This document shows, piece after piece, positions 1 to 64,000 of a DNA stretch of 64,000 bases. The notes under the pieces were generated by a model. The model saw only the letters and a program-made list of their open reading frames with translations, did not search any database and had not been told where the DNA came from. Origin of the DNA: Raja brachyura (taxonomy: Eukaryota); assembly GCA_963514005.1 (NCBI GenBank), contig OY740814.1:11222001-11286000 (forward strand). Reading direction: 5' to 3'. A program made the translations under genes and the position numbers. The stretch's first letter is position 1; each line of letters begins with the position of its first letter.

Positions 1-985
1 ATGGGAAGTTAAGGGACGTCAGAAACAAGGAGAGAAAGACAGGGGGGGGGGGGGGGGCACGTTACCCCTGGGTAAATTGTTGCTCTCCTGACTCTCGGTT
101 GAGAAGCAGAGAGTTGAGGGCAAGGAGCCAGTTGCTAATTTGATGTCTAGTTCAGAGGGAGACTGCAAAATGGTTTCTAAATGAAAATTGAAACAAAAAC
201 TGTAGATGCTGGAAATCTGAAATAAAAATGCTGCAAAAACACTCAGTAGATCAGGCAACGTCCGCAGAAAGCAAAGCAATCGATGTTTTGGGGATGCTAA
301 GTGCTTGCATGTGAATGGAGCAATCTGCAAACAATAGATTCTGTGGGAAAGTCCATTTATGTTTACATGACAAAAGTCCTCACATTGTGCAAAGAATTCG
401 CAAAGGGACCCGGCTATTAAAAATGTAAACATAACCAAACACGCTCTGCAAGTCTAGTGTGGTTTCCCAACTTCTTCTCATAGAAATTGTGAAAAAATAA
501 AGTACTGTGAAAATAAAACCAATTATCATTCTAAAATTAAAAAAACATTAATATACAGTATAATTAAAATGAAGTTATAATCAAGGCCAAAGTAAACATT
601 GCAGGTATAATTCTTGGAATTATGTGGCTGTATCATCTCATTGCTTTATTTTTCCAAAGTAAAGGTGGGGATTCTTGTTGGATCACATATACAACCTATT
701 GACTGATGTGATTAGTATTGGATCACATTAGGATTAGGTTGGATCACATACAAACATTCCTTGTCCTTCAGTGGAATAAATGGGTGAACAAGAGGAGGAG
801 AATGGCATTGGAATCTGGTAAATGTTAGGAATCAGATTTGTGTAAATTGTTCTATCAATCGTGCTATCAAAGTCCCGCGTAGAATTTGAAGTGTGCAGGT
901 GGTCTTGTGCAAGAACAAGGTATGTGAGCAGAATGGGGTTATTTTCCTCTTTTTAATTATCTTCCTGTTCTCCGTCCCTCAACAG

Positions 986-3654: not shown

Positions 3655-3983
3655 AGCCCTGTCCCACGGTACGAGTTCATTCCAAGAGTTCTCCCGAGTT
3701 TGCCCTGATTCGAACTCGGAGATTTACGGTAATGGCCACTCGTCGGTACTCGGGGCTCTCGTGGACATTTTTCAACATGTTGAAAAATCTTCGCGAGACT
3801 TCCCGTGTTTACCTGCCGCAAGCGAGTCGTCCCGAGTACCTGCCGTTAGCGTTACGAGCCGCTAAGAGATGTCCCCGAGCTCCGACGTACCCGCTACGTT
3901 CATTCTCCGTGCTTACCCTGAGTTTGATTTTTTTTTTAACTCAGGAGAGCTCTTGGAATGAACTCGTACTGTGGGACAGGGCT
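3655..3983. mobile_element. MITE, probably PIF/Harbinger-like
   Basis: About 45-bp terminal inverted repeats agccctgtcccacggtacgagttcattccaagag / ctcttggaatgaactcgtactgtgggacagggct. CpG-rich, with internal palindrome atttttcaacatgttgaaaaat. Confidence 0.85.
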
Positions 3984-5460: not shown

Positions 5461-6180
5461 TAAGAAAGAACTGCAGATGCTGGTAAAATTGAAGGTAGAC
5501 ACAAAATAGAAACATAGAAACACAGAAAAATAGGTGCAGGAGTAGGTCATTCGGCCCTTCGAGCCTGCACCGCCATTCAATATGATCATGGCTGATCATC
5601 CAACTCAGTATCCCGTACCTGCCTTCTCTCCATACCCCCGGATCCCTTTAGCCACAAGAGCCACATCCAACTCGCTCTTGAATATAGCCAATGAACTGGC
5701 CTCAATGACTTTCTGTGGCAGAGAATTCCAGAGACTCACCACTCTCTGTGTAAAGAATGTTTTCCTCATCTCGGTCCTAAAGGAATTCCCCCTTATCCTT
5801 AGACTGTGACCCCTTGTTCTGGAGTTCCCCAACATCGGGAACAACCTTCCTGCATCTAGCTTGTCCAACCCCTTAAGAATTTTGTAAGTTTCTATAAGAT
5901 CCCCCCTCAATCTTCTAAATTCCAGTGAGTACAAGCCGAGTCTATCCAGTCTTTCTTCATATGAAAGTCCCGACATCCCAGGAATCAGTCTGGTGAACCT
6001 TCTCTGAACCCCCTCTGAAATGCTGGAGTAACTCAGCTGGGTGGGTACAGCAGCATCTCTAGAGAGAAGGAATGGGTGACGTTTCAGGTCGAGACCAAGG
6101 GTCTCGACCCAAAACGTCACCCATTTCATCTCTCCAGAGATGCTGCTTGACCCGCTGAGTTACTCCAGCATTTTGTGTCC
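5461..6180. mobile_element. Fold-back Penelope-derived insert interrupted by a CR1 LINE
   Basis: Left arm 5461-5507 resumes at 6018. The arms invert around ggtcgagacc-aag-ggtctcgaccc (~6088-6110). Confidence 0.8.
5508..6017 (-). mobile_element. CR1/HER1-type LINE 3' fragment
   Basis: Translates to VQRRFTRLIPGMSGLSYEERLDRLGLYSLEFRRLRGDLIETYKILKG...FFTQRVVSLWNSLP (CR1 ORF2 C-terminus), with 3'UTR and (tttctatg)n tail. Confidence 0.92.
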
Positions 6181-6439
6181 ACTATCAAAGGGTTGCCTGT
6201 GAACCAGCTACTTGCTCATTGTAAAATGCTGCACTTCTTTTCTCCAAAGATCTGTTTGAGTGTGTCTTCTGCCTCTCTTAATTCCAAGACATAATGGCAT
6301 TATTTTTTCATGGACTATCTTCAATTGATAACCGCCACAATATTGTCCACCTTACAATTAACAAACTTAAGAATGAAAGAAACAAGAGCAGGCTTTGTGG
6401 TGTCATTTATCTGGGTCATGGCTAATCTCGGAGTCATTA

Positions 6440-7050: not shown

Positions 7051-7886
7051 TGAAGATCTTTGCTTATAATTTGCTACCTGCTTTGTGGCTCTATAATCTA
7101 TAAGGATACAGGCCTGTATATCATAGATATATATATATATATAGTGCGTGTGCGCGTGCGTGTGTGTTGTGATAGATAGCATTGTTAAATGTATGAGCAG
7201 AAAAGTCTCCCTCACTGTTATCTTTCCGTGTAAAATGGGTGATTGTGGTGGTAGTCCTGTCAGATACCAACAACAATACCTCTGGTTCTTGTATGGAAAG
7301 AGAGGGATGGAGATTGCAGAACATTACAAAAATGTCAGTTGAGTTCAATTTGTTCTGTAAATAATGGTGATGTTGCAACCTCTCCATGGGCCAATGCCTG
7401 CAACATCTGGAGGTTTCATCCTTAATTCTGTCTTTATTTTTGATCTCAGTGGCCCTAAATGGAACTGTTAGCTCTCCTGCTAATCCTCCTGGGGGTCAGT
7501 TTACGTACTATCCACAAAGCCTGCTTTACTGTCACCAATACAACTGCCCATAAAACTGAAGCCAATGCAAGCATTGATTAAAACAGCCACAAGCTACAGA
7601 AGCTTTTCTTAACCCCTCTCCTGCAATTGTGGACACAAATAATCCAGCCGCCCGATGTATGATGTTTCTTCACATCTGGTCACAAATGTCCCACCCCTGC
7701 TCCCAATTTCATTTCTGCTTGATGTTGAAGCAGCCAACACTTCTGCAGTTAATGTCCTCCGCAGTTTTTCTCCTCTTTCTTCGATTCTCCACTCCCTCTT
7801 CTTTCTCGATCTGTGATAATATTAGAACTGGAACCGAGAAAACAAAATGCAACGCTCACTCATTGATACCGGCTCCATTCTGGGAT

Positions 7887-8012
7887 GTGTAGGAAAGAAC
7901 TGCAGATGCTGGTTTAAACCAAAGATAGACACAAAAAGCTGGAGTAACTCAGGGGGACAGGCAGCATCTCTGGAGGGGAGGAATGGGTGATGTTTCGGGT
8001 CGAGACCCTTCT
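7887..8012 (-). mobile_element. Short Penelope-derived insert, 13-bp TSD
   Basis: TSD tccattctgggat at 7874-7886 and 8013-8025. The 5' end falls within the hammerhead core. Confidence 0.85.
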
Positions 8013-8085
8013 TCCATTCTGGGATCCTTTTATTTGCTGTTCCCCATTCTGCTTCCGAAAATGTTGGGGAAAACAATATCAATTT

Positions 8086-8569
8086 GGGCGGCACAGTGGC
8101 GCAGCGGTATAGTTGCTGCCTTACAGCGCCAAAGACCCGGGTTTGATTCTGACCTCAGGTGCTGTCTGTATGGAGTTTGTACGTTCCCCCTGTGACCATG
8201 TAGGGTTTCTCCGGTTTCCTCCCACATTTCAAAAGCGGACCCGTTTGTAGGATAATTGGCCTTTGTAAATTGTCACTTGAGTGTAGGATAGAACCTGTGT
8301 ATAGGTTATCGATGATACACAAAAAGCTGGAGTCACTCAGCGGGACAGGCAGCATCACTGGAGAGAAGGAACGGATGAAGGGTCTCGACCTGAAAACTTC
8401 ACCCTTTCCTTCTCTCCAGAGATGCTGCCTGTCCCGCTGAGTTACTCCACCTTTGTGTGTATCTTCGGTTTAGACCAGCATCTGCAGTTCCTTCTTACAG
8501 GTCATCGATGGTTGGCGTGGACTCGGTGGGCCCAAGGCTTGTTTCCACGCTGTGTCTCTAAAACTAAAC
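8086..8569 (+). mobile_element. V-SINE (HE1-like) with a nested Penelope-derived insert
   Basis: Head gggcggcacagtggcgcagcggta (A-box) and B-box-like gggtttgattc. V-domain ggagtttgtacgttccccctgtgacc. Tail tgtttccacgctgtgtctctaaaactaaa. Confidence 0.88.
8315..8498. mobile_element. Fold-back Penelope-derived insert, 12-bp TSD
   Basis: TSD aggt(t/c)atcgatg at 8303-8314 and 8499-8510. The inverted arms meet at gatgaagggtctcgacctgaaa. Confidence 0.85.
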
Positions 8570-8679
8570 CACAACTGAAACAAATTAAACATTAAAGAAG
8601 GAACCTCCTAGAGAAAAAAACTTCTCTGTATTAACCTCTAACTAACCCTTCCAATTCACCCCACCCCATTTTTGCCTAC

Positions 8680-8945
8680 AGCTCCCCCCCCCCCAACCTC
8701 CACAATCCGGATCTCACGCATGGCACCCAGCTATTTGTCCCCTCCATCTCCACCACCCACCCATCCCACTGCTACTCTCATCTTCAATCTGTAACTCTTC
8801 AATCGTATTGTTCCCCTCCGCCCCACAATCAATCTGTGGAAGGGTCTTGACCTGTAAACGTCATCTTCTCCAGTGACGCTGCCTGACCTGCTGAGTTATT
8901 TCAGCGCTGTGTTCTTTTGCAGCATCTGCAGTTCTTTCTTGCAAC
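8680..8945 (+). mobile_element. Degenerate Penelope 3' end
   Basis: C-rich tract, then ctgtggaagggtcttgacctgtaaacgtc and gcagcatctgcagttc. Confidence 0.65.
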
Positions 8946-9479: not shown

Positions 9480-9877
9480 ACTTTATATTGCCAGAATGTG
9501 AGGGAATTGTACGCAAACTGGAGGAACAGCACCTCCTATTTCCTCCAGTTTGCGTACAATTCCCCCTCTATCCCCCCTCTCCCACTCTAATCGTCCTATT
9601 AGTTCCATTGTTTGCATCCTTGTATCCTTGCGTTGTCACCTCTTCTCCAGCCATCAACGGGCCATTGTGGGCTCCACCTTTCCTTCACCGGTCCTGCTTT
9701 GTTTGGGCCTTTTCTTACCTCCAGTTCCCTCCCCTCTACTTTCAGGCTGAAGAAGGGTCCTGACCCAAAATGTCACCCATCCTTTTTCCCAGGAGATGCT
9801 GCCTGACCGGCTGAGTTACTCCAGCACTTTGCGTCTGTCTTCGGTGTATACCAGCATCTGCAGTTCCTTTCTACACA
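9480..9877 (+). mobile_element. Penelope-like element 3' end (endonuclease C-terminal remnant plus terminal repeat)
   Basis: RKLEEQHLLF resembles the C-terminus of vertebrate Penelope GIY-YIG ORFs. It is followed by a pyrimidine-rich UTR, a hammerhead-like core at 9747-9774 and the shared terminus cagcatctgcagttcc. Confidence 0.75.
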
Positions 9878-10897: not shown

Positions 10898-10926
10898 TAA
10901 TGGAGATGATCAGATCAGATACATGG

Positions 10927-11015
10927 GTAGACAAAAAATGCTGGAGAAACTCAGCGGCTGAGGTAGCATCTATGGAGAGAAGGAATAGACAACGTTTTGG
11001 GTCGAGAACCTTCTT
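10927..11015 (-). mobile_element. Short Penelope-derived insert
   Basis: gtagacaaaaaatgctggagaaactcagcgg...gggtcgagaaccttctt. catgg is duplicated at both ends, and the empty site is visible in the opposite inverted-repeat arm. Confidence 0.8.
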
Positions 11016-11072
11016 CATGGTTCTGCATTATTGGAAGCAGTTGTCTACAGTTTGTGTGTTTGTCCACGAGTC

Positions 11073-11206
11073 TCCTTCTTTCGTGTGGCGTGCACAGCCT
11101 AAAGTTGTTGGACAACTTGTTCTATTTGATCTTCTGTTTGTGCACGTTGAATTGATTGCATTAGTCGAAACAGGGCGGACCACGTGATGGTTGCAATCTT
11201 CCACCC
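11073..11206 (-). mobile_element. ~134-bp SINE-like retroposon with GAA tail, 13-bp TSD
   Basis: TSD ttgtccacgagtc at 11060-11072 and 11207-11219. A homologue lies at 38674-38804. Confidence 0.85.
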
Positions 11207-12169
11207 TTGTCCACGAGTCAATGACAGACAACTATCAGGTTGAGTTGGGTCGATACATGACCAACTTTAGTCTTCAGTAAAGATGTTTGAACCAGTTGAG
11301 TTTTCCAGTGTGTCCCCATCCCTAACTCCAAAGTTTAATTCAGTGACAGAAGATGCCCAAAGTCTAACGGACCTAATGCTGTTCCTCATGTTACCGTGTC
11401 TCCAACCTGAATCCCTGACTGTAGTGATGTCGAACACCCAATTGAGAAGCTGATCACAAATTGCAAACATCACAACAGGCTTCTTAAAGGTTACGATATG
11501 TGCCATTTTTTCATTTTGCCATTTAAAAATATTTTTGGTGCTCCATTCCTTTAGCAGTTAATTTTCAGAATTTTTAGAAATTTTCCAAAATAATGCATAG
11601 TTTATTTTTCTGCTGATGTCTGACTAAATCTATACATAAATGGGAAAACTTTTCAAGTATCGGCAGACTTTATAAATTAGTGGGGACGGGGACTCACTGG
11701 AAAACTCAACTTGTTCAAACATCTTTACTGAAGACTAAAGCGGCCCATGTATCGGCTCAACTCAACCTGATAGTTTCCTATCATTGACTCGTGGACAAAC
11801 AACCAAGGTGTAGACAACCAAGGTATTGGTGGTTCCAATAAAGCAGAACCATGTATCTGATGCACGATCACGGACTCTCCTGTCACTGCGTCTCTAGTTA
11901 CTAAATGAAGATTTAATTTACAGCTTGCTCATTTTAAAGATCAACGCAAACCTGCTCATTGGGAACCCACTGCAATTTGGACTAAATGAAACCTTGTGAA
12001 ATTGGGTTGGCTGGAAACTGAGAAGAGGAATGAGTTCCTCAGGCAAAGAATTGTCAAGAAGTTTAAGCAAGGTAGAGAAAACAGGGAGGGATATCCATAT
12101 TCATTTACAAAAATGATGGCTTTCAAAAGTAATTAATTTGCCATTTAACATGCCCCAATGTATTGTGCT

Positions 12170-13323: not shown

Positions 13324-13617
13324 GAGTTCAATAGCATGCATATCTTTGTCCACGATAAATATGGCTGAGAAACATTCCTCATCTAGTGTTTTCTATTGAC
13401 ATATCCAAGTCTTGAAACCAACCCTATCGAGTTTCAGTTAGATATTAAAATGAGATCAATTTGTAAAAATACAGAAAACATTAGAAGTGCTTGTCGGAAG
13501 TTACTTTAATGGAAGTAAATGATTCAATGGGATAAAGAACCATCGACTTACTGAGGACTGAATGAGATGGCACCTCACCATTTTCCATGGACTATTGAGG
13601 GAGAGTGAATGGGACCA

Positions 13618-13700
13618 GGGTCTCGACCCGAAACGTCGCCTAGCTCCTTCGCTCCTTAGATGCTGCTGCATCCGCTGAGCTCCAGCTTTTTGTGTAACCC
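13618..13700 (+). mobile_element. Short Penelope-derived insert, 13-bp TSD
   Basis: TSD gtgaatgggacca at 13605-13617 and 13701-13713. The insert starts at hammerhead helix II, gggtctcgacccgaaacgtc. Confidence 0.87.
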
Positions 13701-15454
13701 GTGAATGGGACCATGTTCATCCAACATATTTTACAACAGTCGTTCCTCTTTATCGAGCTCTCTCTTCTCCATCTACCAAAGCTGGCACCATTACCCATTG
13801 GAGTGGGGTCAACTTCAAAGGCAGTTGAGCCTGGAAACAAAAAGCTGTATTTGTTAAATGCTTTCAATTTATTGCTCTGCAAATAATTAACTTGATTTTT
13901 CCAACTTTCACATGATGGATGAAATACTTCTATTTCTAAAAGATTTCAAGAATGTCCTCTTAAAAACCTAAAGTCAAGACAGAGGGGAAAGCTGTTTCCT
14001 GTCTCAAGTCTTTAAATGCCAGAATTCATTTATTTTTATTTTCTTGGTTATTTCATCCACAAGTGTCAATTAAGAGGAGAATCAGTCCACCATAATTCCG
14101 CCAAAGCATTCTTCTGAAGTTGGCCATTAATGATTTCCCGTGATAATTACTCTAAAGTAGAGGGGATGATGAGCATTTGCTAAAGCCTTTCTGATCAGAC
14201 CTCACTTTGCATTGACCCGGCGGATACAACACTGAGGAGCTTTTCTTCAAGCCAAAAGGGAACAGGAAGCAAACAATAACTTAGAGCTTTGACAAATCTT
14301 TTGAGGGGAAAAAAAAAGCAATAGTGTACTCCCATTTGTGGCCTTCTTATTAAGCAGGAAATTGCACCCTGTCCCATTCCAGTAAACTCCTCCATGCCTG
14401 GCAACTGATCCTTTCACCCTAAGGCGCCTCCTGAAGTCACGATCATGAAAGAGGTCCAGTTCAACACATCGCCTCCACTTTAATGTCTTTGAGTTGATTA
14501 TTGGCCAAACATTCCAAAATAGGTTTCCTTCAACAAAAACATTGTAAAGCTGACTTCCTGAAGTGGCTGGTGAGAACGAGGAGGAAATATCTACTTTTAC
14601 TTAGATTTCTTCGACTGTCTATCTGAAGGGAAAGTATCCAAATACTCAACTCACTGGAAGTATCCAAATGAGTGAGTGCTTTGTTGTGGGGCCTGTCCAA
14701 TTTATTGATTTTTCACAAAAGGAGAATTACAGGCTTGTTCAGGCTGCTCACCACCAACAGTTGCATGGGGAATATCTGACCGGCCGCTCTATGAAGGTCA
14801 GGTCATTCCCAACATCCACAGCCGTTGTTGGGAACAAGGTGGAAGTCTTGTTGAACTTGGATCTGGACCTTGTGCTCCACTGCAGAGCTTAGTCTTGCAT
14901 TGAGCACAGCAAGGCTCAGCTCTGGGCTCTTCCTGGACATGAACGGCCCATTCCTGCCAATAGTGTCAACAACTTACATGACAAAGGAAGCACAGGTGAA
15001 CCACTTGTCTTCACTTTATTTTACGAATCCTCAATATTTTTAATTTCTCTCATCTAAATGCATCTTACTTCAGCTTCTTTTTGTTTGGTTATCTTTAATT
15101 GATTAAATTACTTAAGTTGATTTTTAAATGTTCCTGATTATTAGGAACGCTTAAAAACAACTCGGAGAACCTACGACAACAATGAGTTGTCAAAAAGCCA
15201 TCTGAGGAGTCTAGGGCATCAGAGCTGCTGAACCTGAAGCCTGATCACTGCTTGTGGACACTCCATTGCCAAGGGTGGTCACAGCAGCAGGACCTGCCTC
15301 TGAACTCCAACCACTGGGTTGCAAAAGTAATGGGAACCAGAGTTTTAGTTCAGGAGGGGGGTGTGACTTCCAGGTTGGCTCAAGAACAATCTCACCCAAT
15401 GTTAATAGGATTTGTTCACAAAACAATTCTGAACCTGGTGATTATAATGAAGTA

Positions 15455-15690: not shown

Positions 15691-16190
15691 AATTATTTGT
15701 TATTGTTTGCAGCCATCCAAATCTCTTCACAATTAACAAAGTATTGCCGTGATCCGTAGTGACGGATGTTTGGCAGCAAACTGCTGCAGTTATTTGATGT
15801 TCTCCAGGATCCTACAAGGACTAAATCGTAATCTGTGCCCCCTGCTGTTTGTACCATGGGGCTGGCAGCAGGGCCACGGACAAAGGAGATTCACTGGCCT
15901 CATTCACCCAGGGAGAGCGGAGGATCTGCCTGTGTGCCGAGCATGGAGCAGGGAGCGAGGCAGTGTGGGGCGAGGACATGAATATTGAACAGCACTGGCT
16001 TGCAGGTTCACTTCAGGAAACGTTGCCCTTTTACCGACACCGTGCGCTGGTCAGCAAGTGCCTGGGTATGAGGACACTCTGGAAGGTGCAGGAGAAGGAT
16101 GCTCTGATTTGGATTTACAGCCCCTGCTGGAATATCCATAAAATATCTTAGGCCTGATCGAGGTACAGGCTCAATACAGTTACAACAAAA

Positions 16191-16347
16191 GATGTTTCGG
16201 GTCGAGACCCTTCTTCAGATTGGAGAAGGGTCTCGACCTGAAACGTCACCCATTCCTTCTCTCCAGAGATGCTGCCTGTTCCGTTGAGCTACTCCAATTT
16301 TTTGTGTCTATCTTCGACTTAAACCAGCATCTGCAGTTCCTTCTTAC
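16191..16347 (+). mobile_element. Penelope-derived insert with inverted hammerhead head, 15-bp TSD
   Basis: TSD acagttacaacaaaa at 16176-16190 and 16348-16362. A minus-strand core at 16191-16218 abuts a plus-strand core. Confidence 0.88.
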
Positions 16348-17619
16348 ACAGTTACAACAAAACTCAGATAATCCTTTATCTAATTGTTCAGAAATCCCCA
16401 GGGTTTGGAGTCTGGTACACCTCTTAGTCGGGAATGCCAGCGGGTGGTGTGACTGCGTCCATGTTGGTCTCCAGAGCCAGGGTTGGGAACAAAGTTTGTC
16501 AGTGACTTGGGGAGATAGTGGCCGGAGACAGGATCCAGAGAGCTTGTAGAATTCAGCCTGGTTTGACTGAAATAGGCAAACTGAAACACCACAGGTTAAA
16601 CTTTAAACTTGTCATGTTAGTCATAGAGTCAGAAAGTCACAGAGCATGGAAACACACCCTTTGGCTCAACTTGCCTGTAACAACCAAGATGCCCCATCTA
16701 CACTAATCCCATCTGCCTGCATTTGGCTCATATCCCTCTAAATCTTTCCCATATATACTGAAAAAACTTTTAAATTAAAAAGTTTTAATTCTACTGCGGC
16801 ACAGGGAATAATAGTGAAATAAAAATGTGGGGTCATTGCTAGGAGCAACATTTAATCTCCTGGACTATCTGCTGGTTCAGATTGAAGGGTGTTGGAGTTT
16901 TCTATACATAGGAACAGTTCCCAAGACAGTGGGCGAACACATACAGAGCACTACACTGAAGCTCAGGGGCTCATTTTCTGTTTGTAAGATGAGCAAAAAA
17001 GCTTGGCGCATTTCAAGACCAGAAGGCAGGAGAATGCGATTGAGAGGGAAAGATAGATCAGCCACGATTGAATGGTGGAGTAGACTTGACGGGCCAAATG
17101 GCCTCATTTTTCTTCTATAACTTATGAAGACCGTTATTCCTTACATTCTGGGGGTCACATCGGACAATGGCTTATCGTCTCATTCAAAAGACAGCCTCTC
17201 TTGACAGTGTGGCACCCTCTGAGAGCACCACTGAAGTGCCAGATTCAGGTCTCTCTGTAGAGGGCTGTGGAAAGTGGTAATGGGCTCCTGGTGGCAGTGG
17301 GCTGGGGTGCAGTCGAGGGATAGTTCTGAGGAGCTGAGGCTGAGTTGGATCTGCACAGAGAGCAGATCGAATGTTCTTGCTGATGGTGTCTCTCAGTAAT
17401 CCAAGTATTGCCATCTGTTCTTTGTACAACACCCACAAGCAAACAAGCCAAGACTTCCAGTGTTTTTGTAATTCCTGTTACCCTTGTCAGTGTAATTGCT
17501 ATTTATAGGTGACTTGTTGAGTATTAAAAACAGGGTAGATGTTCAGACTGAGCCATCTGGTGGATTCAGGCCAGATAGTCACCTCTTCTGGCAAAACCCA
17601 GTGATGATGGCGTGGAATA

Positions 17620-17750
17620 AAAGGAACTGCCGAGGCTAGATTGTAGCAAAGATCGACACAAAATGCTGGAGTATCTCAGCAGGTCCATTTTCTCCAGTGA
17701 TGCTGCCTGACCCGCTGAGTTATTCCAGCATTTTGTGCCTATCCAGATAA
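17620..17750. mobile_element. Fold-back Penelope-derived insert lacking the hammerhead segment
   Basis: cacaaaatgctggagtatctcagcaggtc ... gacccgctgagttattccagcattttgtg. Confidence 0.7.
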
Positions 17751-18704: not shown

Positions 18705-19225
18705 NNNNNNNNNNNNNNNNNNNNNNNNNNNNNNNNNNNNNNNNNNNNNNNNNNNNNNNNNNNNNNNNNNNNNNNNNNNNNNNNNNNNNNNNNNNNNNNN
18801 NNNNNNNNNNNNNNNNNNNNNNNNNNNNNNNNNNNNNNNNNNNNNNNNNNNNNNNNNNNNNNNNNNNNNNNNNNNNNNNNNNNNNNNNNNNNNNNNNNNN
18901 NNNNNNNNNNNNNNNNNNNNNNNNNNNNNNNNNNNNNNNNNNNNNNNNNNNNNNNNNNNNNNNNNNNNNNNNNNNNNNNNNNNNNNNNNNNNNNNNNNNN
19001 NNNNNNNNNNNNNNNNNNNNNNNNNNNNNNNNNNNNNNNNNNNNNNNNNNNNNNNNNNNNNNNNNNNNNNNNNNNNNNNNNNNNNNNNNNNNNNNNNNNN
19101 NNNNNNNNNNNNNNNNNNNNNNNNNNNNNNNNNNNNNNNNNNNNNNNNNNNNNNNNNNNNNNNNNNNNNNNNNNNNNNNNNNNNNNNNNNNNNNNNNNNN
19201 NNNNNNNNNNNNNNNNNNNNNNNNN
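18705..19225. other. Assembly gap (521 N) within an ALDH1A2 intron
   Basis: Run of N. The left flank is alternating purine-pyrimidine sequence. The exons on either side join in frame, so no canonical exon is missing. Confidence 0.99.
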
Positions 19226-19384: not shown

Positions 19385-19597
19385 AAATAACACAAAGTGC
19401 TGGAGTAACTCAGCATGTCTGGCTGCATCTCTGGACAACGTGGGTAGGTGACGTTTCAGGTCGAGGCCCTTCTTCAGCAGTTTGACCAGAAGCGTCGCCT
19501 GTCCATGCCCTCCAGAGATGCTGCCTGACCTGCTGTGTTACTCCAGCACTTTGACTTTATTTTTGTAAACCAGCGTCTGCATGTCCTTGTATCTCCA
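19385..19597. mobile_element. Fold-back Penelope-derived insert
   Basis: Inverted arms. Minus-strand core CTGAAGAAGGGCCTCGACCTGAAACGTC at 19450-19477. Confidence 0.8.
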
Positions 19598-30525: not shown

Positions 30526-31035
30526 AGTCTAGATGCAAACATTCTAGATGCTAAGCACACTTCTTTACATTGATGTTGAGTGTTTGCATTAGGGATTGAA
30601 TTTCCACCTTAGGTCTCTCCCTGTTTTTTCATAACAGACTCTGGAGCAGGTGAACATCTGAAGCAGAAATCTCCGTTGCTCTGTTTTCTTCGCTGTGCTT
30701 GCAGCATTTGAATGTTCCTCTTGAACCTTAAAGAAATGTGATATTCCAGGTGCCGCTTCACCACAGCATTATAAAACTTGATAACTCTTATTTTCTATTC
30801 ACTTATTGTTGAATCGTTGGTTGACCGCAGCTCTACAATGGCTGAACACGTTTGTGTTGACTCTCCTTGGAGCCCTGGGTTTCTTCCAGCTTTGCGTTGA
30901 ACCAACAAACAATATAGGTTGACACAAACAACTGGCGATGCTGGGATCTTGAGGAAAAAATAAAATTCTGGAGGAACTCAGCGGGACAGGCAGCATCTCT
31001 GGAGGGCATTGATTGGCCAATGTTCTGGTTGGGAC

Positions 31036-31432
31036 CAAAGATCCTATAGCGGAGCAAGATAGATCACTCCTTCTAAATGCAATGGATGACGTGTAGTACG
31101 CAATGGAACGGAACATGGGTCTTTTTTCATCCATTTGCGTAAACCTGACCCGACCGGACCCGACTCGCAATGTAATCAACGTTGCAGGTGGACAGTTTGT
31201 GTTACAAAACTAAAATTCTGAAAATGAGGAGAAGATTTTTACTAAATAACTAGTTATCTTTGCTCCGTTATGGGATCTTTGGTGCGGAGACGGAAGTTGG
31301 CTACGGAAATGGGGCCTTAAATTACCCATGAATCTGCCCATGACCGTACTACGTGTTTTTCGTCGAGTGACCTATCTTGCTTCAGATTCAGATTCAGATT
31401 CAGATTCAGATTTGCTTGCTATAGGATCTTTG
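31036..31432. mobile_element. Non-autonomous DNA transposon with 8-bp TSD (P- or hAT-like)
   Basis: TIR caaagatcctatagc...gctataggatctttg. Perfect TSD gttgggac at 31028-31035 and 31433-31440. Confidence 0.88.
31381..31411. repeat. (TTCAGA)5 microsatellite inside the right TIR
   Basis: ttcagattcagattcagattcagattcagat, flanked by ttgct on both sides. Confidence 0.9.
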
Positions 31433-33029
31433 GTTGGGACTATTCTTCAAGATTGATGGGGGGGGGGGGGGGGAAGCTGGAAGAGAGGTGGAGGCAGGAC
31501 TAAGCCAGGCAAGTGACAGCCGGATTGGTAGATGGGAGGACAAAGGTCAGAGGAATATAGGAGACAAAAGGCTGTGTGATATATAATGTTTTGATGTGAC
31601 ACCATGACTTTGTGATGAAGCCCACACAAGTCCTTGTGATAACGGCAGATTAATAAAGCAGTGATGGGGTGATGATGGTAATACTCAGTTATTCATTGGA
31701 AGGAGACACAAGAGACTGTAGATGCAGAACACCAAGTGCTGGATTCTGAAGAAAGGTCCCACCCCAGGGTGTGGGATATGTGTGCCAGTATATGATCCTA
31801 TAACACTGGCATTCCGCCAACTTGTGCCATGACCCCACTCATCTGCAACATATGACACTCCTTACTTTAGAGTCACTTTGCAACGAACATCTGAATCTCT
31901 TCGTAAAGGAAGTCAAATAGTGTGGAAGCGGACTAAACATTCTCAGAGGCCAGGAATTGAAGGATGCAGGGGGAATCAGCAGATTGAGAATGATTCGGAT
32001 GTGCGATAGAATCTGGATCACTGACCTAAAACCAGAAGACAGTCTTTCACTTTTATTTACTCCTGACTTGGATCTTAAAACCCCATCTCCCTATGACTAG
32101 AATACAATGTACAGGAGTAACTCAGAAGGTCAGGCAGCATCTCTGGAGGACATGATAGGCAAAGTTTCAGGTCAAGACCCTTCTCCAAACTCCAGCACTT
32201 TGTGTTCTAAGCAGGGCTCCAGCATCACCAGTTCCTTATGCCTCCTACCAATACATAACTGTGTATTAACATCATCATTAACCTCATTACTGCTCAATTA
32301 ATCTGCCTCTTCACTAGGACTTGTGCCGGCTTCATCAATAAGCCACGGTGTCACATTTTAAAATGATTACCATGTTCAAAGCTGAAATTTGTCCAGGCTC
32401 CACGAAGTCAAAGGGAAATAATGCTGCACCGTTTTGTAGGTTCTGGGATTTGCATTGAATTTTCTCGAAAGAAAGCATGACAAAAAGAACCAAACTGGAA
32501 TCATCAATTCTTGCTGATTTATTCACCCTCTGGGACTTCACGCGCGTTTGGCGGCCAGCACTGACCGTGCGAGCTGCCATCTGTACTCATTTCCACAGAT
32601 TTGGCCTAATTGAAGTCAGTGGAAGCAAATGTTGGGCGGCAAATGGATCGCTAAATGCAAACCGCTCCCCAATAGACTTACTTTGATTCTTTCAAATCCT
32701 CTGCAATCGAAAATATTCGGTGAACCTTTGTAACTTTGTCTGTGCCAAAATGGGGCGACGTTTGTGTACTGCCTAGGTGTACTGCAATTCCCCGTTATCA
32801 TCTCCGGATCAATGAATCGTTGGGGAAATATTTCCCCACTGCCTAGATGGGTGCAAATCCAACGACATTCGAGAAGCTTAAGACTGCTCAGGGCACAACA
32901 GTCCACTTGGTCAGTAGACCATTCTTCTTCCAAAACATTCACTCCCTCCACCACTGCATGGAGGGATGACGTGGAAAACCAAAAAGCTTCATGCAGGAAA
33001 CGTTCTCGAGGATTATAGATTCCAACACG

Positions 33030-33610
33030 TGGAGATGGCATGTGTTCTCTTGCCATTATCTTTGGTGATTATTGTCGTATGCACCAAGATACTGTGAAAA
33101 ACTTTATTTAGCGTGCTATCCAGGCAAACCATGGATGAGTACAGCAGGCTGGGTAAAAAGGGAAAATAAACAGAATGCAGAATAGTGTTTACAGCTGCAG
33201 TTCAAGAACTGCAACAAGATAGATTGGGAGATAGGGAAAACATCTGCAGCCTTTGAGAGGTCACTCCGTGAGACTGATAACTGCTGGGAAGAAGCTTTCT
33301 TGAATCTAGTGATGTGCGCTATCAAGATTTTTTACCGTCTACCCCACGGGAGAGGGGAGAATAGGGAATGGCCAGAGTGTGACTGGTCCTCAATTATGTT
33401 GGCTGCTTTTCTGAGACAGCGTGAAGTGTAGATGCAGTTGACTGAGGGGTGGGTGGGTGGGGGAGGAAAGGTTGGTTTATGTGATGAACTGAGCTGAGTT
33501 CACAACTCTGTGCCATTTCTTGAGATCCTGGGCAGAACAGTTGTCAAAGTAAGTTGCGATGTATCCAGATTGGATACTTTCTATGGTGCATCTGTTGAAA
33601 TTGGTACAGA
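33030..33610 (-). mobile_element. Rex1/Babar-like LINE fragment
   Basis: gactgataactgctgggaagaagctttcttgaatctagtg...cacaactctgtgccatttcttg...ctttctatggtgcatctgt. Confidence 0.65.
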
Positions 33611-33872
33611 TTCCATATTCCATATTCTTCCATGCAGAGAATCTGCCTGTCCCACTGAGTTACTCCAATGAATCGTTGAAAGCACAATAAGGAAAAGGAT
33701 GAGATTGAAAAAATAAAGCTCGAGAAAAATAAGTAGGCAGTGAGTGACTTCTCAAAGCCTTACCACCATCAACAGGTTGATATGGGAATTATTTCCCCAC
33801 TGCCTAGATGGGAGCAAATCCAATGACATTTGAGAAGCTTAAGACTGCTCAGGGCACTTGGTCATTGGAGAC

Positions 33873-33944
33873 ATAAGATCTTTCCAGATTCTTCAATCCA
33901 GAGATACTGCCTGTCCCACTGAGTTACTCCAGCATTTTGTGCCT
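33873..33944 (+). mobile_element. Short Penelope-derived insert, 12-bp TSD
   Basis: TSD gtcattggagac at 33861-33872 and 33945-33956. Confidence 0.75.
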
Positions 33945-35302
33945 GTCATTGGAGACTTGTCGAATTTCCTTCCCCAACTCTTCTAAGGAAGTAGAGTTGG
34001 CATCTAATTGGAGGGATCAGAGTCACGTGTTTATCCCAGCGGCCAAGATCGTGTGCAGTGCACATGTTGTGGTGCCATTAATAACGCAGCTGAAGCTGGC
34101 AACACCTCAGCTTCAGGTGAATTGTGCTCAGGCCACTTTCCCGATTGATGCAATTTCACCTGGAAATAATCACCAGTATAACCTAATCCAGAAAGAAACA
34201 GCTTTAACACCTTGGATAGCCACTGCCTTCTACGTCTGTGCTGAATTCATTGCCTATGACCGTCTGCTGTTCCTGACTTTCCCCTCGCTTTTTGCTCCCC
34301 CCCCCCCCCCCGCCCTTTAATTTACATTACAAATCAATGTAATTTGTTTTTTGGCTGTGCCTAAATCACGCGCATAAACGGTGAACGAGAGATATCTGCA
34401 CGGCTCCCCCCAAGCACGTGGGCGAACCTGAGCCACAATGGAAACGTGAATTTATTTCCGTCCCTCACTCCCCATCCTTTAGTCGTCTAAACAGTGACAT
34501 TCCTTTCGAAAATCCGTCTTCATTTGTGCTTCTCTTGGACAGACATTTATCAAATTCCTTTCAAAAGTGCATATAAACAATATTCACCGCATTCTCCATA
34601 CCTCTGATTTCCTTTACAAATCCACGTGGACTGGCCCTGATTAGCCCATGCCTTTCCAAGAATTCATTAAGAGCAATGTGTTGGCACGCACCCAGGGAGC
34701 TGCTGTGTATCAAGCACCGGCTCACTGAGTCCCTGGGCATCCAGACCTGGGGCTTAGTGTGTGCCCCCTGCACCCAACACAAACAACACTGAGCTGGCGA
34801 ACAACGCGGTGCTGGCTCGAAGGGCCGAATGGCCTACTCCTGCACCTATTGTCTATTGTCCTACCTCAGGCTCTGCGCAAAACCTTGGTCCAAATGATAA
34901 GTCGTTATCAGGAGGTACGAAGAGCACCAATGTCAACCACATGTCAACAGATGCCGATCGGCAGCCCTGCTACCTTCACTTAGATTCTTGTTAAAGTTAC
35001 ATTGTTGTTATTGGTTGTATCTCTTAGCAACTGATGGTGTTTGCATTTGTTAGACCAAGTTATGGAAGGTTGTTGGATTGTACTTTCAATGCTACTTGCA
35101 GCTGTCCTGTAGCCCGTCTAGTGGCGGGAAACTCTTCACCGGTCAGCCACGGATATCACCGTTCACTTGTGTGGGGACCGGTGCGGAGGCCGCTGCTGCG
35201 CACTTTCAGCCACAACTTTACACTGACCCTCACCTGTCAAAGCCCAGTGTGCCTGCCTGCTTCCTGTCAAAGTCATTTCCTGGCATGGAGATTCCTGAGG
35301 GT

Positions 35303-38600: not shown

Positions 38601-38673
38601 AACAAGAAATTCAAAAATGTCTGACTTCCCTTCATAACATGTTCTCCACTGTTAAAATACTGACTTTCAAGTG

Positions 38674-38804
38674 GGTGGAAGAATGCAACCCTCACGTGGT
38701 CGACGAATGCAATCAACCCAGCGTGCACAATCAAATAAGATCAAATAGAACAAGTTGTCCTACAACATTAGGCTGTGCGTGCCATACGCAAGAAGAAGAG
38801 GAAG
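38674..38804 (+). mobile_element. ~131-bp SINE-like retroposon with GAA tail, 15-bp TSD
   Basis: TSD actgactttcaagtg at 38659-38673 and 38805-38819. Homologous to 11073-11206. Confidence 0.85.
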
Positions 38805-41418: not shown

Positions 41419-42927
41419 GTCCCGACCCTAAACGTTGTCTGTCCATTCCCCTCCACAGGTGCTGCCTGACTCAACTCGTTGAGTACCTCCAGCACTTTGT
41501 GTTTTTGCTCGAGATTTCAGCATCTGCAGTTTCTCGAATCTCTGGCTTGTTCTTCTGGTTTTATTGCCACCAGGTAGGAATTTCCAGCAGTTCTTCACCA
41601 AGGGTTTTCACGTTCCAGAGTCACTAATCCCCATTGCATGATTTGGGCCACATTCCTCCTGTAACTCGCCCTCACGAGGAGTAACATAAAACACGGCACA
41701 TCAAGCGCATAATTACAAACACAAAAAAATAGGAAAGCCAGATTATTTAACTGACAGATGCCTCATTGGGAAAATGTGATGAATGGGTGTCTGTGCTGCC
41801 TGATGGAATATAACACATCCATGTCTTCTCACTTTTCAAAAGGAGCATATTAAGCCTTTGTGAGGCTTTTGTTGTGTGACTTTGGATCATGAATGGAGCC
41901 ACAGACAAAATGATTTGAGGTTTGCACCAGCTTTATTAGTGATCTAAAAAGCCCTGCTGTGAGCGCGGTGCAAATGGCAGCTTGACTCTCTGTATCACAG
42001 CGCTACCTGAACCAAATGGTAGCGCGGTTAAGACTGGGTGCCAGCAGTCGCAGACATTCGTGGCAGCACCACATCCACCTAACAGGAAACAAGGCGCAGA
42101 TTATTCTAAACTTGTTCCAAAATTCTGTTTCGGAAAAGAAAATGCTAATTTTCCCTTCAGCTTTGAATTTTCTACAGACGCGAGGAGCGATTCGATTGAA
42201 AGCGGATTCCTAAAGTTTTTGTGCACATGAAACCAACCCGCCCCATCTTTGTGATGAAACCGTGACCAGGTGACTTCCAGTTCCCCTGGATTGAACTCCA
42301 CCCAAACACTAGCAGTGGGGTGGAAAGTGACGGGGAACGGCCAAAGCTGTTCCTGAGCGGTGGCGAGTGGTCCCGTGTTCCCTGCTGTTTACACTTTTTA
42401 TAAACAGTTTTATGTGAAATACTTTCAGTGATATAAATTATGTTTATGATACCAAGTTGATACCAAGACATAAACTTCATTCAACGCTCAGGCCTCTTAA
42501 ATAAATGGAGGGGGGGGGGGGGAAGAAATAATGGCAAATGGATTTAATGTACATAATTGTTAAATTGTGCATATTTAAACAGGAATGACAAACATGTATA
42601 TACGATGATAGTGTACCTGTTTGATGATGGCTGTGGTTGCTATCTAAAAGGTTCAATGTGAAGTTAAATAAATATTAAGACCTCGTATGCATAGACGAAG
42701 AGAAAGGCCACCTGTTCTCCCAAAGCCAACCCTGTCCTGGCTTCTATACCAACCATTCACCAGGGTCCACAGGGCTATCCCACACACACCAATGTAAAAT
42801 GCACACATAAGGAAACAGAAGTATTTGGCATACGGCACTCATCACATCTCGTCCATAATGCGGAAATGTGTTCATTGCAAGGAACCCTACGCACATCCTT
42901 CAGGTAACAAACCTGTACACAATAAAA

Positions 42928-43064
42928 GAAGAAGTCTGAAGAAGGGTCTCGACCTGAAACATTACCTATTTCTTCGCTCCATAGATGCTGCCTCACCCGC
43001 TGAGTTTCTCCAGCATTTTTGTCTACCTTTGATTTTTCCAGCATCTGCATTTCTTTCTTAAACA
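42928..43064 (+). mobile_element. Short Penelope-derived insert, 14-bp TSD
   Basis: TSD tgtacacaataaaa at 42914-42927 and 43065-43078. Core CTGAAGAAGGGTCTCGACCTGAAACATT starts at 42936. Confidence 0.88.
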
Positions 43065-43479
43065 TGTACACAATAAAACTTCTGTTTGGATACCTTGGCA
43101 GGACAACAAAAGCAAATAATTGTATCCAAATGGTGAGAGATTGCAGAGGCTTGTGTGCAAATGAAGCAGATGAGGAGGGAAGGTTTTGAAAGTCATTGTC
43201 ATTGGGAGGGGAAAATGAATACAAAGTAGAGAGGTAATGCTTTAGGGATGTGGGGCATTGGTGAGGCCAGATATACAGTACCATGCACATTGTTGGTCCC
43301 TGTATTCAAGGAACTGTGTTCATGTGTTGAAAGCAGATCAGGGAAGGTCTACTGGGCTGAGTAGTTTGCTTTATATGACAAGGTTGAACAGGCTAGGCTG
43401 CAGTTTTAAGAATACAGCAAAACTGTTCCCCAGCAAATGTCATATGAGAACGTATTATCCAACAGTCATATAAATAATA

Positions 43480-45779: not shown

Positions 45780-46970
45780 ATTAACAAGTCTACAGATGAC
45801 ATGTGGGTCAGTGTGTTATGGATATTGAGAAAAGTTATGGCAGGATATAGATCTAAGTCTACAACCAAGATGTAGATCAGATGGAAAGTTGAGCAGGGTA
45901 TTGGCACATGGAATTTGATCCTGATGTGTGCAATGTGATGCATTTTGGGAAGTCAAATGGGGTGGACATGGACAGTAAGTGATAGGACATCAAGGAGTAT
46001 TGATGAACAGAAGGACCTTGGGTTCAAATCCATAGTTCCCTTTAAGTGACTACAGAGGTCTTTAGTCCAGTGAAGAAAGAAGGCACATGGCACAGTTGAC
46101 TTCACAGGTCAGGGCATAGCATACAAAAACTGGGGTGTAATGTTGCAACTTCACATTATTGCAGTTTCATTGTGTGCAGTTCTGGTCGCCAAGCTCGAGG
46201 AAGGATGTAGTTTCACTGGAGAGGGTGCAGAGGAGATGCAGCAGGCTGTTGCCTGGATTGGAGGACTTTAGTTATGGGGATAGGCTGGGCTTGCTTTCCC
46301 TAGAATGAAGGAGGCTTATGCCCCCGTCCCACTTGGGAAACCTGAACGGAAACCTCTGGAGACTTTGCGCCCCACCCAAGGTTATCGTGCGGTTCCCGGA
46401 GGTTTTTGTCCTCCGGCAACCACCTTCGACTAGCATCGCAACCGGCTTCGACTAAAAAGTTACCGATTTTTAAAACGGAAACCACTTTCGACCATTAGGG
46501 AGACTGACAAAAACCTCCGGGGACCTCCGGGAACTGCACAGAAACCTTGGGTGGGGCGCAAAGTCTCCGGAGGTTTCCGTTCAGGTTTCCTAAGTGGGAC
46601 AGGAGCATCAGGGGTAACCTGATAGAGTCATAGATAGAGTAGATAGTCAGGATCGTTTCACCATAGCAGGGGTATCAATAATGAGAGGGCACAGGTTTAA
46701 GCTGAGAGGAAGCAGTTTTAAAAGAAGAGGAGACTTTTTTAATATGGAGAACCATTGTTATCTTCTGTTTATCTCAAAAGACATGGTGGAATCAGATACA
46801 ATCATCATGTTTATAAAGACAATTAGACAGGCACATGAAGAGATCAGGCATAGGAGGATGCACACATAATGTGGGCAAACAGGGATCAGTGTAGGTGGGT
46901 AAAAAGGCTGGAATGAATGTGGTGGGCTGAAGGGTTTATTTCTGTGATGTATAATGCTATGACTCTATTA
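45780..46970 (+). mobile_element. Degenerate CR1-type LINE (RT C-terminus to tail), split by a MITE
   Basis: tgtgcagttctggtcgcc, ctggagagggtgcagaggagat and gaaggaggct[MITE]aggggtaacctgatagag motifs. Confidence 0.8.
46319..46607. mobile_element. MITE, probably PIF/Harbinger-like
   Basis: About 95-bp inverted arms tgcccccgtcccacttgggaaacctgaacggaaacctc / gaggtttccgttcaggtttcctaagtgggacaggagca. Flanks are tta / tca (TNA-type 3-bp site). Confidence 0.85.
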
Positions 46971-47032: not shown

Positions 47033-47156
47033 TAGGTGCAGGAAGGAACTACAGATGCTGGTTCAAACCGCAGATAGACACAAAAAGCTGGAGTAACCCA
47101 ACGGGACAGGCAGCATCTCTGGAGAGAAGGAATGGGTGACGTTTCAAAGGTTCTCA
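47033..47156 (-). mobile_element. Short Penelope-derived insert, 14-bp TSD (1 mismatch)
   Basis: atgggaaag(a/g)tagg at 47019-47032 and 47157-47170. Confidence 0.8.
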
Positions 47157-52452: not shown

Positions 52453-52499
52453 TATTTTACTATTTTTTAGTGTGCTTATAAGCTTCCCTTATGTGTGTG

Positions 52500-52676
52500 G
52501 GGTGGAACTGCAGATGCTGGTTTAAACCGAAGATAGACACAAAATGCTGGAGTAACTCAGTGGGACAGACCGCATCTCTGGAGACCCTTCTTCAGTCTCG
52601 ACCTGAAATGTCGCCCATTCCTTCTCTCCAGAGATGTTGCCTGGCCCGCTGAGCTACTCCAGCATTTTGTGACTAT
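52500..52676. mobile_element. Fold-back Penelope-derived insert, 12-bp TSD
   Basis: TSD cttatgtgtgtg at 52488-52499 and 52677-52688. The pivot is gagacccttcttcagtctcgacc. Confidence 0.87.
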
Positions 52677-53147
52677 CTTATGTGTGTGCACCGTATGTGT
52701 TTGTCATGTGTGTCTGTGCATCTGTGTATGCGTATGTGTGCGTCTCTGCATCTGTCTGCCTGTTTGTCATTCATCCCACCCCCTAACTGCATCGGCATTG
52801 CAAATACATTTCTACTAATGAAAATAAATGTGTTTTAAAAGTTAATACTTCAGTGCTGAATTATAATGAACTATGATCCTACTTTTTCCTGTTGGGCTTA
52901 TTTTAGTACTGATCATAATTCATTAAAATAAATGTTACCTCTGCCATTAAAATGATGATAACATGGAAAATCTGGCGTTTATCACTATGTGTGGCAAAAA
53001 GATGAAGTGTTTAAACAGGCAACTCCAACATTAGTTTCCCAATGATCTGTCTATCAGTTTTCAGTTACAATCCAAACCATGTTCCCAGTATTATCAGAGA
53101 GGGCATCGTCCACTGTCTCATGTGCTTGTTATTTCAAAAATATTTTG

Positions 53148-53847: not shown

Positions 53848-53990
53848 AAACAAGGAACTGCAGGTGCTGGTTTACAGAAATGAAAGACAAAAAGCACAGG
53901 AGGAACTCAGCAGGTCAAGAGGCATCTCTATCCATGTTCTCCAGAGATGCGACCCGACCGGCTGAGTTATTCCAACACTTTGTGTCTTTC
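53848..53990. mobile_element. Fold-back Penelope-derived insert lacking the hammerhead segment
   Basis: aaggaactgcaggtgctgg...actcagcaggtc / gaccggctgagttattcc. Confidence 0.7.
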
Positions 53991-54348
53991 TGACGTTCAA
54001 TGGTTCAATGATTCTTTATTGTCCTGTATGCACAGCACAGGGACATTCTTTTGCACAACCCACTAATGTACGGTTGCGATATTTTAGCGCCTCGTATGTT
54101 AGGTAATGTGTAAGCATTTGTGAATAAAAGAAGATGGTATCGTGAGATGTTCCATTGCATTTGTAGCAGCAGCATAAAAATAGGGAGAGAAGGATTGATA
54201 TTCCAGGGATAGGGGGAACTGGGGCAGCAGGTCTTCAGATTTGTGTACAACGCACGAGAGCAGTGAAGAGAATCTTACCTTGGCAGTCGCTGTAAATTCA
54301 CTGGACTTTTTCCTGAACTACATGGTCAAGCCTTTGACAATTCATTTT

Positions 54349-58629: not shown

Positions 58630-59030
58630 TGATTGCACTGGAGAGGGTGCAGACATGGTATATAAAACAAGTTGCCAAGACTGGAAAACTTTAACCATAA
58701 GGAAAGATTGAATAAGCTAGGGTTGTTTCCCCTGGAACTGAGAAGGCTGAAGGGAGATTTAATTAAGGTGATAGAATTATGAGGCATGAGAATTAGGAAG
58801 ATGGTCTAAAACCAGGGGCATAAATCAAAAGCACTTGATAAAAGGATTAGACAGGAGATGAGAGAAAGAGGGTGGTGAGGATCTGGAAACTGCCTGAAGA
58901 AGTGTTTGTCCGTGGACTCGAGGAGTTCTTCCCTGCAGGCCCATAGAGCCAATTCAGGAAGGTTCGATCGATCTGTGCAGCTCTCAACCAACACAGACAC
59001 CAAATAACCTTCTTCTGTGTAATCAATGTT
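58630..59030 (+). mobile_element. Old CR1-type LINE fragment
   Basis: ctggagagggtgcaga...agaaggctgaagggagatttaat (RRLKGDLI). Confidence 0.72.
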
Positions 59031-59184
59031 TCTGCTTCTCAGTCAACTCTTCTCGCTACTTACGGCAGATCTGCATGAGCTGTTCACCAACTCTGGTAGT
59101 GGGAGCCATTCTCGAGGTCTGTTCAATAGCTTGTCCTCTGTGGCAGCACAGCCGTGAGCTCCTAACGTGTCCCGACCCTCCCTC

Positions 59185-63626: not shown

Positions 63627-63844
63627 TCAAGAAGGAACTGCAGATGCTGGAAAATCGAAGGTAGACAAAAGTGCTGGAGAAACTCAGCGGGTGCAGCAGC
63701 ATCTATGGAGCGAAGGAAACAGGTAACGTTTCGGGCCGAAACCCTGAAGGAAATAGGCAACGTTTCGGGCCGAAACGTTGCCTATTTCCTTCGCTCCATA
63801 GATGCTGCCGCACCCGCTGAGTTTCTCCAGCATATTTGTCTACC
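63627..63844. mobile_element. Fold-back Penelope-derived insert
   Basis: Inverted arms with a central near-perfect palindrome at 63746-63792. Confidence 0.87.
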
Positions 63845-64000
63845 TGTGAAACCTTGGGTTTTTTCTGGGTGCTCTGGTTTCCTTCCATATTCCAAAGGCG
63901 TGCAGGTTTGCAGATTAATTGGCTTCCATAATTATCCCTATTGCGTAGGATAGTGGTAGTGATGGTGGTCAGCGCAAACTCGGTGGGCCAAAGGGCCTGT

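Follow-up and report, generated by a model that had tools for sequence, protein, structure and literature searches.

Penelope-like terminal units and their hammerhead motif

The 64-kb window, by which we mean the whole stretch of DNA analyzed here, carries a total of 37 arms of a ~130-nt Penelope-like terminal unit at 27 loci, as identified by a search with a profile built from 15 arms, and the density of the family amounts to one copy per ~2.4 kb (Table 1). Unit positions are counted from the C of CTGAAGA (CUGAAGA in RNA) as 1, with helix II at 9-20, GAAA at 21-24 and the predicted cut after 28; the start of the unit reads CTGAAGA-A-GGGT(N4)ACCC-GAAA-CG-TC. The units end at two fixed 3' ends, ~91-95 and ~121-128, about 34 nt apart. 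Head-to-head inverted arms (fold-backs) were observed in 9 of the 27 loci, and the longest copy adds an inverted piece. Exact target duplications of 8-15 nt flank seven of the 27 loci (2500, 7874, 13605, 16176, 33861, 42914 and 52488); further duplications were 11 nt with one mismatch (8304) and 4-5 nt (11017), the latter judged by comparison with the unoccupied arm, at 11859, of an inverted repeat. Because of the two fixed 3' ends, the target duplications and the inverted arms, the copies were called the end of a Penelope-like element (PLE), and their anatomy suggests that they are terminal (pseudo-LTR) units of such a retrotransposon. PLE hallmarks include a 30-40-bp tail at one end as well as an inverted 5'-truncated copy that adjoins the 5' end (PMC3846280, PMC8557442); here both 3' ends were present, and seven of the nine fold-backs had one long and one short outer end. 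In the remaining two, one end was cut (6018-6183), or the long end was paired with an end at 28 (16191). The first-pass annotation had equated the fold-backs with the inverted 5' structures known for Penelope insertions, and our analysis agreed.

Coding sequence is nearly absent from the family. The longest copy retains 245 nt upstream of the unit, where one frame reads RKLEEQHLLF within a ~14-residue remnant at 9500-9540; this string resembles what we take to be the end of a PLE endonuclease. The motif occurred once in the window (1 of 27 loci), a search of 25 residues against Pfam found no match for the remnant, and no clear homologue of the upstream part of this copy was found elsewhere in the window. 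In contigs of four public runs, aligned to the long copy at 80% likeness (88,187 pieces in X1 and 98,869 in X12), the depth of the ORF end was ~2% of that of the best conserved 3' segment across runs, which agrees with the single locus in the window. Viral and metagenome contigs were scanned for the unit pattern, with 0 matches in either set. In addition, the remnant forms part of a perfect 25-nt inverted duplication (9502-9526/9540-9564), an inversion ~200 nt upstream of the hammerhead. Further along the same copy, a segment with a palindrome (9646-9681) showed coverage across runs far above its neighbors; its AAYGGG could pair with CCCATT just past the cut site, or mark an exon end.

Alignment suggested that the unit is headed by a minimal type I hammerhead motif as described for PLEs, with predicted self-cleavage. 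Specifically, the core nucleotides, the extra base before helix II, the G10.1-C11.1 pair and the palindromic 15.2-16.2 were all present when aligned to the published motif (PMC4209133). A hammerhead pattern derived from the same copies gave 7 matches with up to 2 mismatches vs 0 in 100 shuffles. Helix II was paired in 90.6% of cells and helix I (2 bp) in 62.5%, above slid controls and not above shuffles; compensatory changes in helix II were not found, so covariation adds nothing. Rfam returned no hammerhead match at E up to 1, and its 13 matches at that threshold, all under the gathering score, were microRNA-type or hairpin models on the fold-backs. Helix II is a 4-bp stem, and window copies folded no better than shuffles (z -0.9 to +1.7, 9 of 9 folds). 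A stem pairing 3-12 with 29-40 was predicted in four of six full-length folds.

Table 1. Mapped copies of the terminal unit and parts of the insertion at 16176-16362 (window coordinates; arm ends and switches in unit positions).
Feature	Coordinates	Strand	Remarks
Target-site duplication, left copy	16176..16190	+	exact repeat of 16348-16362, 15 nt
Short inverted arm, element positions -1..28	16191..16219	-	
Hammerhead motif of long arm	16220..16247	+	core decayed; helix II at 16228-16239
Long arm, unit positions 1..128	16220..16347	+	
Target-site duplication, right copy	16348..16362	+	
Longest copy	9500..9877	+	ORF-end remnant, pyrimidine-rich stretch, TCAG 9742-9745, hammerhead 9747-9774, long 3' end
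Fold-back	6018..6183	.	arm ends 10/7, without microhomology; outer end cut on the left
Fold-back	8304..8510	.	arm ends 27-35 and 3-8; one short, one long outer end; within SINE-like repeat
Fold-back	17620..17743	.	switch 59/34, away from core; long and short outer ends
Fold-back	19385..19589	.	switch 1/11; short outer end on arm reaching 1
Fold-back	32104..32238	.	switch -3/72; 3-nt microhomology; short outer end on arm reaching -3
Fold-back	52488..52688	.	internal jump 41 to about 16; switch 1/11; 12-nt duplication
Fold-back	53849..53991	.	switch 46/32, away from core; long and short outer ends
Three-piece fold-back	63628..63845	.	runs to 8, then again from 41; strand switch within a quasi-palindrome, 11-26
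Single arm	7874..8025	-	5' end at 3-5; 13-nt duplication; long 3' end
Single arm	10922..11019	-	5' end at 2-4; short 3' end; 4-5-nt duplication
Single arm	13605..13713	+	5' end at 8-9; 13-nt duplication; short 3' end
Single arm	42914..43078	+	5' end at -3 with 5 additional bases; long 3' end; 14-nt duplication
Old copy continuing upstream via pyrimidine-rich stretch	8660..8943	+	left boundary approximate
Old copy continuing upstream	30926..31560	-	hammerhead split by inverted-repeat element; boundary approximate

Several copies are interwoven with other repeats. An inverted-repeat (MITE-like) element at 31034-31430 lies inside the hammerhead of an old copy. The element at 10914-11870, with long imperfect inverted arms (11016-11322 vs 11683-11863), has acquired the stub at 10925 as well as a ~130-nt repeat that is also present at 38673-38799, its untouched arm serving as the empty site. 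A local inverted duplication (31594-31758/32176-32356) carries the junction of the 32188 fold-back together with about 120 nt of flank, and a local direct duplication at 32823-33952 (32823/33784, 33620/33888) includes part of a stub. At 47146-47156, 10 bases between a stub and an imperfect duplication resemble CTGAAGAA minus helix II, possibly a jump over the hairpin. The window also includes MITE-like elements at 46315-46611 and 3655-3983, with 89-nt and 46-nt inverted arms that both start near a GTCCCAC motif, and a 285-codon open frame at 58898-59755 that matches RVT_1 weakly and under the cut-off (E 0.001), a fragment of an unrelated non-LTR retrotransposon. Two further abundant families are a ~300-nt SINE-like repeat at 19 places, its tail common to LINE-like pieces, and LINE-like element 3' ends with short tandem tails at 13 places. 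Such SINE- and LINE-like repeats are suggestive of a cartilaginous fish as host. An assembly gap of 521 N occupies 18705-19225.

Clustering of 5' ends at the hammerhead motif

Clustering of 5' ends at the hammerhead motif is real in the window. We scored 33 of the 37 arms and left out 292, whose end fell at 18 or 54 by two methods, 5507, which is cut at a LINE-like tail, 33625, a local duplicate of 33872, and 63776, the middle piece of a three-part copy; the end positions were hand-curated, with an uncertainty of a few bases at places with microhomology. The results showed that 19 arms ended at -4..+11 and 10 at 19-72, and four continued upstream (2528, 8835, 9748 and 31450), so that 19 of the 23 arms reaching +11 stopped at -4..+11. 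Loss per nucleotide was 0.088 in this zone vs 0.005 at 12-75. A scan statistic, which corrects for the post hoc choice of window, gave p 0.00005 for all arms (19/33), 0.0017 for arms fixed by a junction or target duplication or passing through (14/28), 0.003 for one value per locus with the least favorable arm (12/24) and 0.0003 for single arms (9/15). The ends were scattered evenly across the 15 positions of the zone, with no pile at -3. Its upstream edge coincides with TCAG/T at -5..-1; six arms reached -1..-4, and these have no common sequence further upstream.

These counts bear on the first-pass annotation, in which inversions and truncations were said to cluster at the hammerhead motif. 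All six fold-backs and seven single-arm ends that it listed were present, within about 5 nt of the places given, and the ends do lie at the hammerhead core; they are located not at helix II, as it proposed, but at and upstream of its 5' strand. For the fold-backs at 8375 and 63745 one arm ends in the cluster and the other does not. Furthermore, the listing was selective, as it omitted fold-backs switching elsewhere (17686, 53929 and 32188), single arms ending at 21 (47145) and 32 (33888), and the four copies continuing upstream. Its statement that the ends are not simply cleavage products was borne out: only 4 of 29 arms at risk ended at 27-35. Loss there was 0.017 per nucleotide vs 0.003 at 36-75, and a second end cluster after the cut site was dropped as too small for a claim. 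A division into old long copies and young stubs was also dropped (3/8 vs 0-2/15, a weak split with low tree support).

The contigs of the public runs point in the same direction. Summed depth was 485k at position 15, 116k at -1 and 41k at -7 in X1, and 1708k, 410k and 156k, respectively, in X12, where contig depth is no copy number and upstream divergence between subfamilies also lowers depth at these positions. This step agrees with the clustering in the window and is no substitute for a genome-wide count. The run reference has a private base at -1, and ends from -4 to +1 thus collapse on 9747 (position 1). Among the joints listed (15 of 350), 9747 took part in four of seven opposite-strand and two of seven goes-back joints, the latter kind including head-to-tail joints that connect each 3' end with position 1 (9831 -> 9747 and 9876 -> 9747); opposite-strand joints at 9825-9830/9877 were left out, as they may stem from the self-complementarity of the unit. 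In X16, 106 contigs had loose ends before 9747, among the loose ends listed (24 of 1475), and their consensus terminates in AGT and is heterogeneous upstream (agreement 0.36). Sites at which many molecules start or stop were not found in the runs, as is expected of contigs. The fall over the pyrimidine tract was about 50-fold in X15/X16 (one study; guessed RNA) vs 15-18-fold, and this steeper fall was not counted as evidence, as a start or an intron would both suit.

Fold-backs and the ending of cDNA synthesis

The fixed 3' ends are the outer ends of the fold-backs and are therefore the sites where synthesis starts. At 17686, 19477, 32188 and 53929 the arm reaching furthest 5' was the short one and its partner bears the tail; in three others it was the long one. 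Self-priming of a single cDNA fails at these four places, because a fold-back copies only what it already holds. The self-priming by one cDNA that the first-pass annotation had suggested is thus excluded for four of the eight scorable fold-backs and is possible at 8375, 52590, 63745 and 16191. Two cDNAs, one per start site and target end, can cover all eight, and the mixed long/short polarity does not suit a single-template model of either sense; the long/short rule argues for two cDNAs per fold-back over self-priming. Junctions share 0-4 bases, and up to 7 at the 63769 quasi-palindrome (read by eye, without statistic), with extra jumps at 52590 and 63745, so that template switching, as the first-pass annotation had it, or microhomology joining is visible at the junctions. 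Earlier work has described palindromes where PLE copies are inverted, and has put forward self-priming on antisense RNA as a model (PMC3846280).

One fold-back may record more than this. The single insertion at 16176-16362 comprises a 15-nt target duplication, a 29-nt inverted arm and a 128-nt direct arm. The hammerhead motif of the long arm has two changes within CTGAAGA and one within helix II, and 16314-16347, between one fixed 3' end and the other, is the ~34-nt tail. The short arm has its outer end (16191) exactly at C28, the predicted cut site, and flank microhomology is absent. Given an RNA start at -3, this arm would be the inverted copy of a 31-nt 5' cleavage product. This is a single case: one among 37 arms ended exactly at the cut site, and no such end was seen among the loose ends listed (24 of 1475) in contigs of public runs. 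A fold-back that stopped at C28 by chance explains it too.

Our best reading of the cluster, with a probability of about 0.45, is that twin-primed cDNAs pass the ribozyme, run off a template beginning at about -3 and then join. The reverse transcriptase (RT) of the element would initiate internally at either 3' end, and each end of the cut target could prime its own cDNA (twin priming). The cDNA would be copied through the uncut hammerhead and run off a template starting at about the A of TCAGT (-3), an initiator-like position; its tip would lose 0-14 nt and then join via 0-4 nt of microhomology, to the target to yield a single arm, to the other cDNA to yield a fold-back, or to a new template to yield a head-to-tail pair. 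The hammerhead would then mark breakpoints because it comes first on that RNA, and most stubs would represent nearly all of a short RNA rather than long elements truncated at random. Such a template end is supported by the 19 of 23 arms that stop at -4..+11, with none at 12-17, and the head-to-tail joints to position 1 suit run-off and jumping. The initiator consensus is YYANWYY, and it is matched both by TCAGTCT and by the TCAATCT that two long copies carry. For PLEs, internal promoters and motifs like Inr have been reported (PMC3846280, PMC2377424). In addition, the RT of an Anolis PLE initiates at two internal positions that flank the tail and elongates both strands of the target; its products shorten on 5'-shortened templates while ribozyme mutants leave their size unchanged (PMC11167929), although these in vitro data come from a different element. 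Other observations, among them the even scatter of ends over the zone, stand against a template end at -3. In Drosophila virilis the start is further upstream, by 46 nt and a 75-nt intron (PMC2377424), and the intron ends at helix I of the hammerhead (PMC4209133), so by analogy TCAG/T would be a splice acceptor and the start ~120 nt further up; and the 10 of 33 arms ending at 19-72 need another cause.

This analogy leads to the rival that we rank next and consider rather unlikely, in which a short intron of the pseudo-LTR has its 3' splice site at TCAG/T, and RT is blocked by splicing factors bound to unspliced RNA or fails at the spliced junction, twin priming and microhomology joining being kept. 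A candidate intron (9667-9745, 79 nt, GT..AG) is close in length to the 75-nt intron of D. virilis (PMC2377424), which ends in the same place, next to a helix I that likewise has 2 bp and a helix III that is again a 2-nt palindrome (PMC4209133). Pyrimidines make up 0.68-0.88 of positions -45..-6 in four of the five copies with upstream sequence, followed by YAG, and the exon-side spread of ends is what a roadblock would produce. However, two of the three clearly long copies have TCAAT without AG, an upstream exon common to the four duplication-bounded single arms was not found, the candidate donor is weak, and no skip ending at 9746 appeared among the joints listed (15 of 350). Unlikely, and somewhat more so, is a role of the purine run at 3-11 in picking the junction, with cDNA-tip pyrimidines pairing with the same or the partner cDNA or with purine-rich target ends. 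Positions 4-10 complement 118-124, 5-10 complement 36-41 and 3-7 complement 92-96; the predicted 3-12/29-40 stem, the coincidence of the end of the run with the downstream edge of the cluster (+11) and the junctions at 8375, 52590 and 63745, which involve 29-41, are also consistent with it. Yet the longest self-complementary pair, 48-55 with 104-111, is no hotspot, 6096 lacks microhomology, and six ends at -4..-1 lie beyond the run.

The mechanism favored by the first-pass annotation, namely stalling, self-priming or template switching of RT at helix II, now seems improbable, also when extended to the whole folded ribozyme, and is, on our best reading, mostly displaced by a template end or a barrier at the 5' edge of the ribozyme. 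RT runs from ~128 or ~94 towards 1, so that a hairpin stall would be expected near 20-21 and a stall at the whole fold near 30. RT encounters the cut site first, then GAAA and the 3' side of the hairpin; the pile-up lies past helix II, and a stall fits poorly. Ends were on the wrong side, 2/25 at 18-26 and 0/23 at 12-17, with the 19/23 past the copied hairpin, and most contigs clipped at 9793 extend to at least position 17. The conservation of helix II speaks for a stall there, as do the ends in or beside it at 6096 (10/7), 19480, 52595 (11) and 63770, the junction palindromes and self-priming proposed earlier for PLEs (PMC3846280) and a protein-stabilized fold that could exceed the predicted strength (PMC11167929); against it stand the 4-bp stem with no fold that beats shuffles, the failure of one-cDNA self-priming for four of eight fold-backs and the in vitro product size unaffected by ribozyme mutants (PMC11167929). 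Least probable of all is a recognition artefact, in which subfamilies differ upstream of the hammerhead and homology fades at -5. Five of the 19 clustered ends are based on homology alone, 22290 may extend 30-40 nt further, age and divergence mark all three clearly long copies, and such an artefact could produce part of the contig depth step, but the 14 of 28 junction- or duplication-fixed ends occupy the same positions (p 0.0017), which largely refutes it in the window. Further candidates were dropped: a polypurine-tract primer, as the purine run is retained at the ends, and a downstream promoter element (DPE), which was a poor match.

Comparison with known systems

Single and opposed minimal-hammerhead stubs, inverted pseudo-LTRs, the tail and junction palindromes are already known, and the element is of a known kind. 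A breakpoint map against the hammerhead and the long/short argument for two cDNAs were not found in searches of open-access literature. In the PLE papers cited here, the origin of inverted and tandem 5' structures, intron retention and the role of a weak hammerhead are treated as open (PMC11167929, PMC3846280, PMC8557442). A family with two fixed start sites and a sharp end zone is a large natural data set for such questions, and its -3 edge is one base where RNA start, splice site and ribozyme boundary become distinguishable. Extending the run-off reading, it is possible, though we regard it as doubtful, that the stubs represent an abundant ~130-nt hammerhead-headed non-autonomous element, whose RNA starts at the 5' edge of the ribozyme and is copied from two sites, with a trace of the cut product at 16176-16362. 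If this is true, strong-stop-like run-off copies and fold-backs would follow from two-site copying by a Penelope RT, and the insertion at 16176-16362 would be a genomic trace of in vivo cutting by a minimal hammerhead and of RT starting on the cut end.

In L1 twin priming both target ends likewise prime cDNA and the products are joined by microhomology. There, annealing of the second primer is internal, and the 3' end is not duplicated in the inverted part. Unlike in L1, both arms here start at fixed 3' sites and duplicate each other. The family resembles canonical EN+ PLEs in its head-to-head arms, one-arm tail (7/9), 4-15-nt target duplications, junction palindromes or microhomology and partial tandems; unlike them, with their ORF for RT plus GIY-YIG endonuclease, it is almost without an ORF (1 of 27 loci keeps the ORF-end remnant), its inversions lie within 130 nt of the 3' end and its 5' ends pile at one place. 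Its motif shares with the minimal hammerhead of D. virilis CUGANGA, the unpaired A before helix II, the G-C closing pair, GAAA, the 2-nt palindromic CG, UH and the 2-bp helix I (PMC4209133). As in metazoan pseudo-LTR hammerheads, the motifs are mostly single and dispersed, with some opposite-strand pairs; a map of copy ends against the motif, as made for the present family, was not found in that study (PMC4209133).

Animal non-LTR retrozymes are likewise short, non-coding, hammerhead-bearing derivatives of PLE terminal repeats, and have been reported from one cartilaginous fish genome (10.64898/2026.07.22.740005). Retrozymes form tandem arrays with a hammerhead per unit; tandem copies of this type were found at 0 of 27 window loci, and the units here do not end at the cut site. 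Head-to-tail joints do occur in public runs. The study of Anolis Poseidon (PAc) left the fate of cDNA ends and the origin of inversions open, and its Fig. S2, on genomic coverage of a related element, could bear on novelty (PMC11167929). Although PAc is a different family, it is like the present one in having two RT starts that bound the tail and lie downstream of an uncut hammerhead, at a distance of about 100-130 nt, and in the extension of both target strands (PMC11167929).
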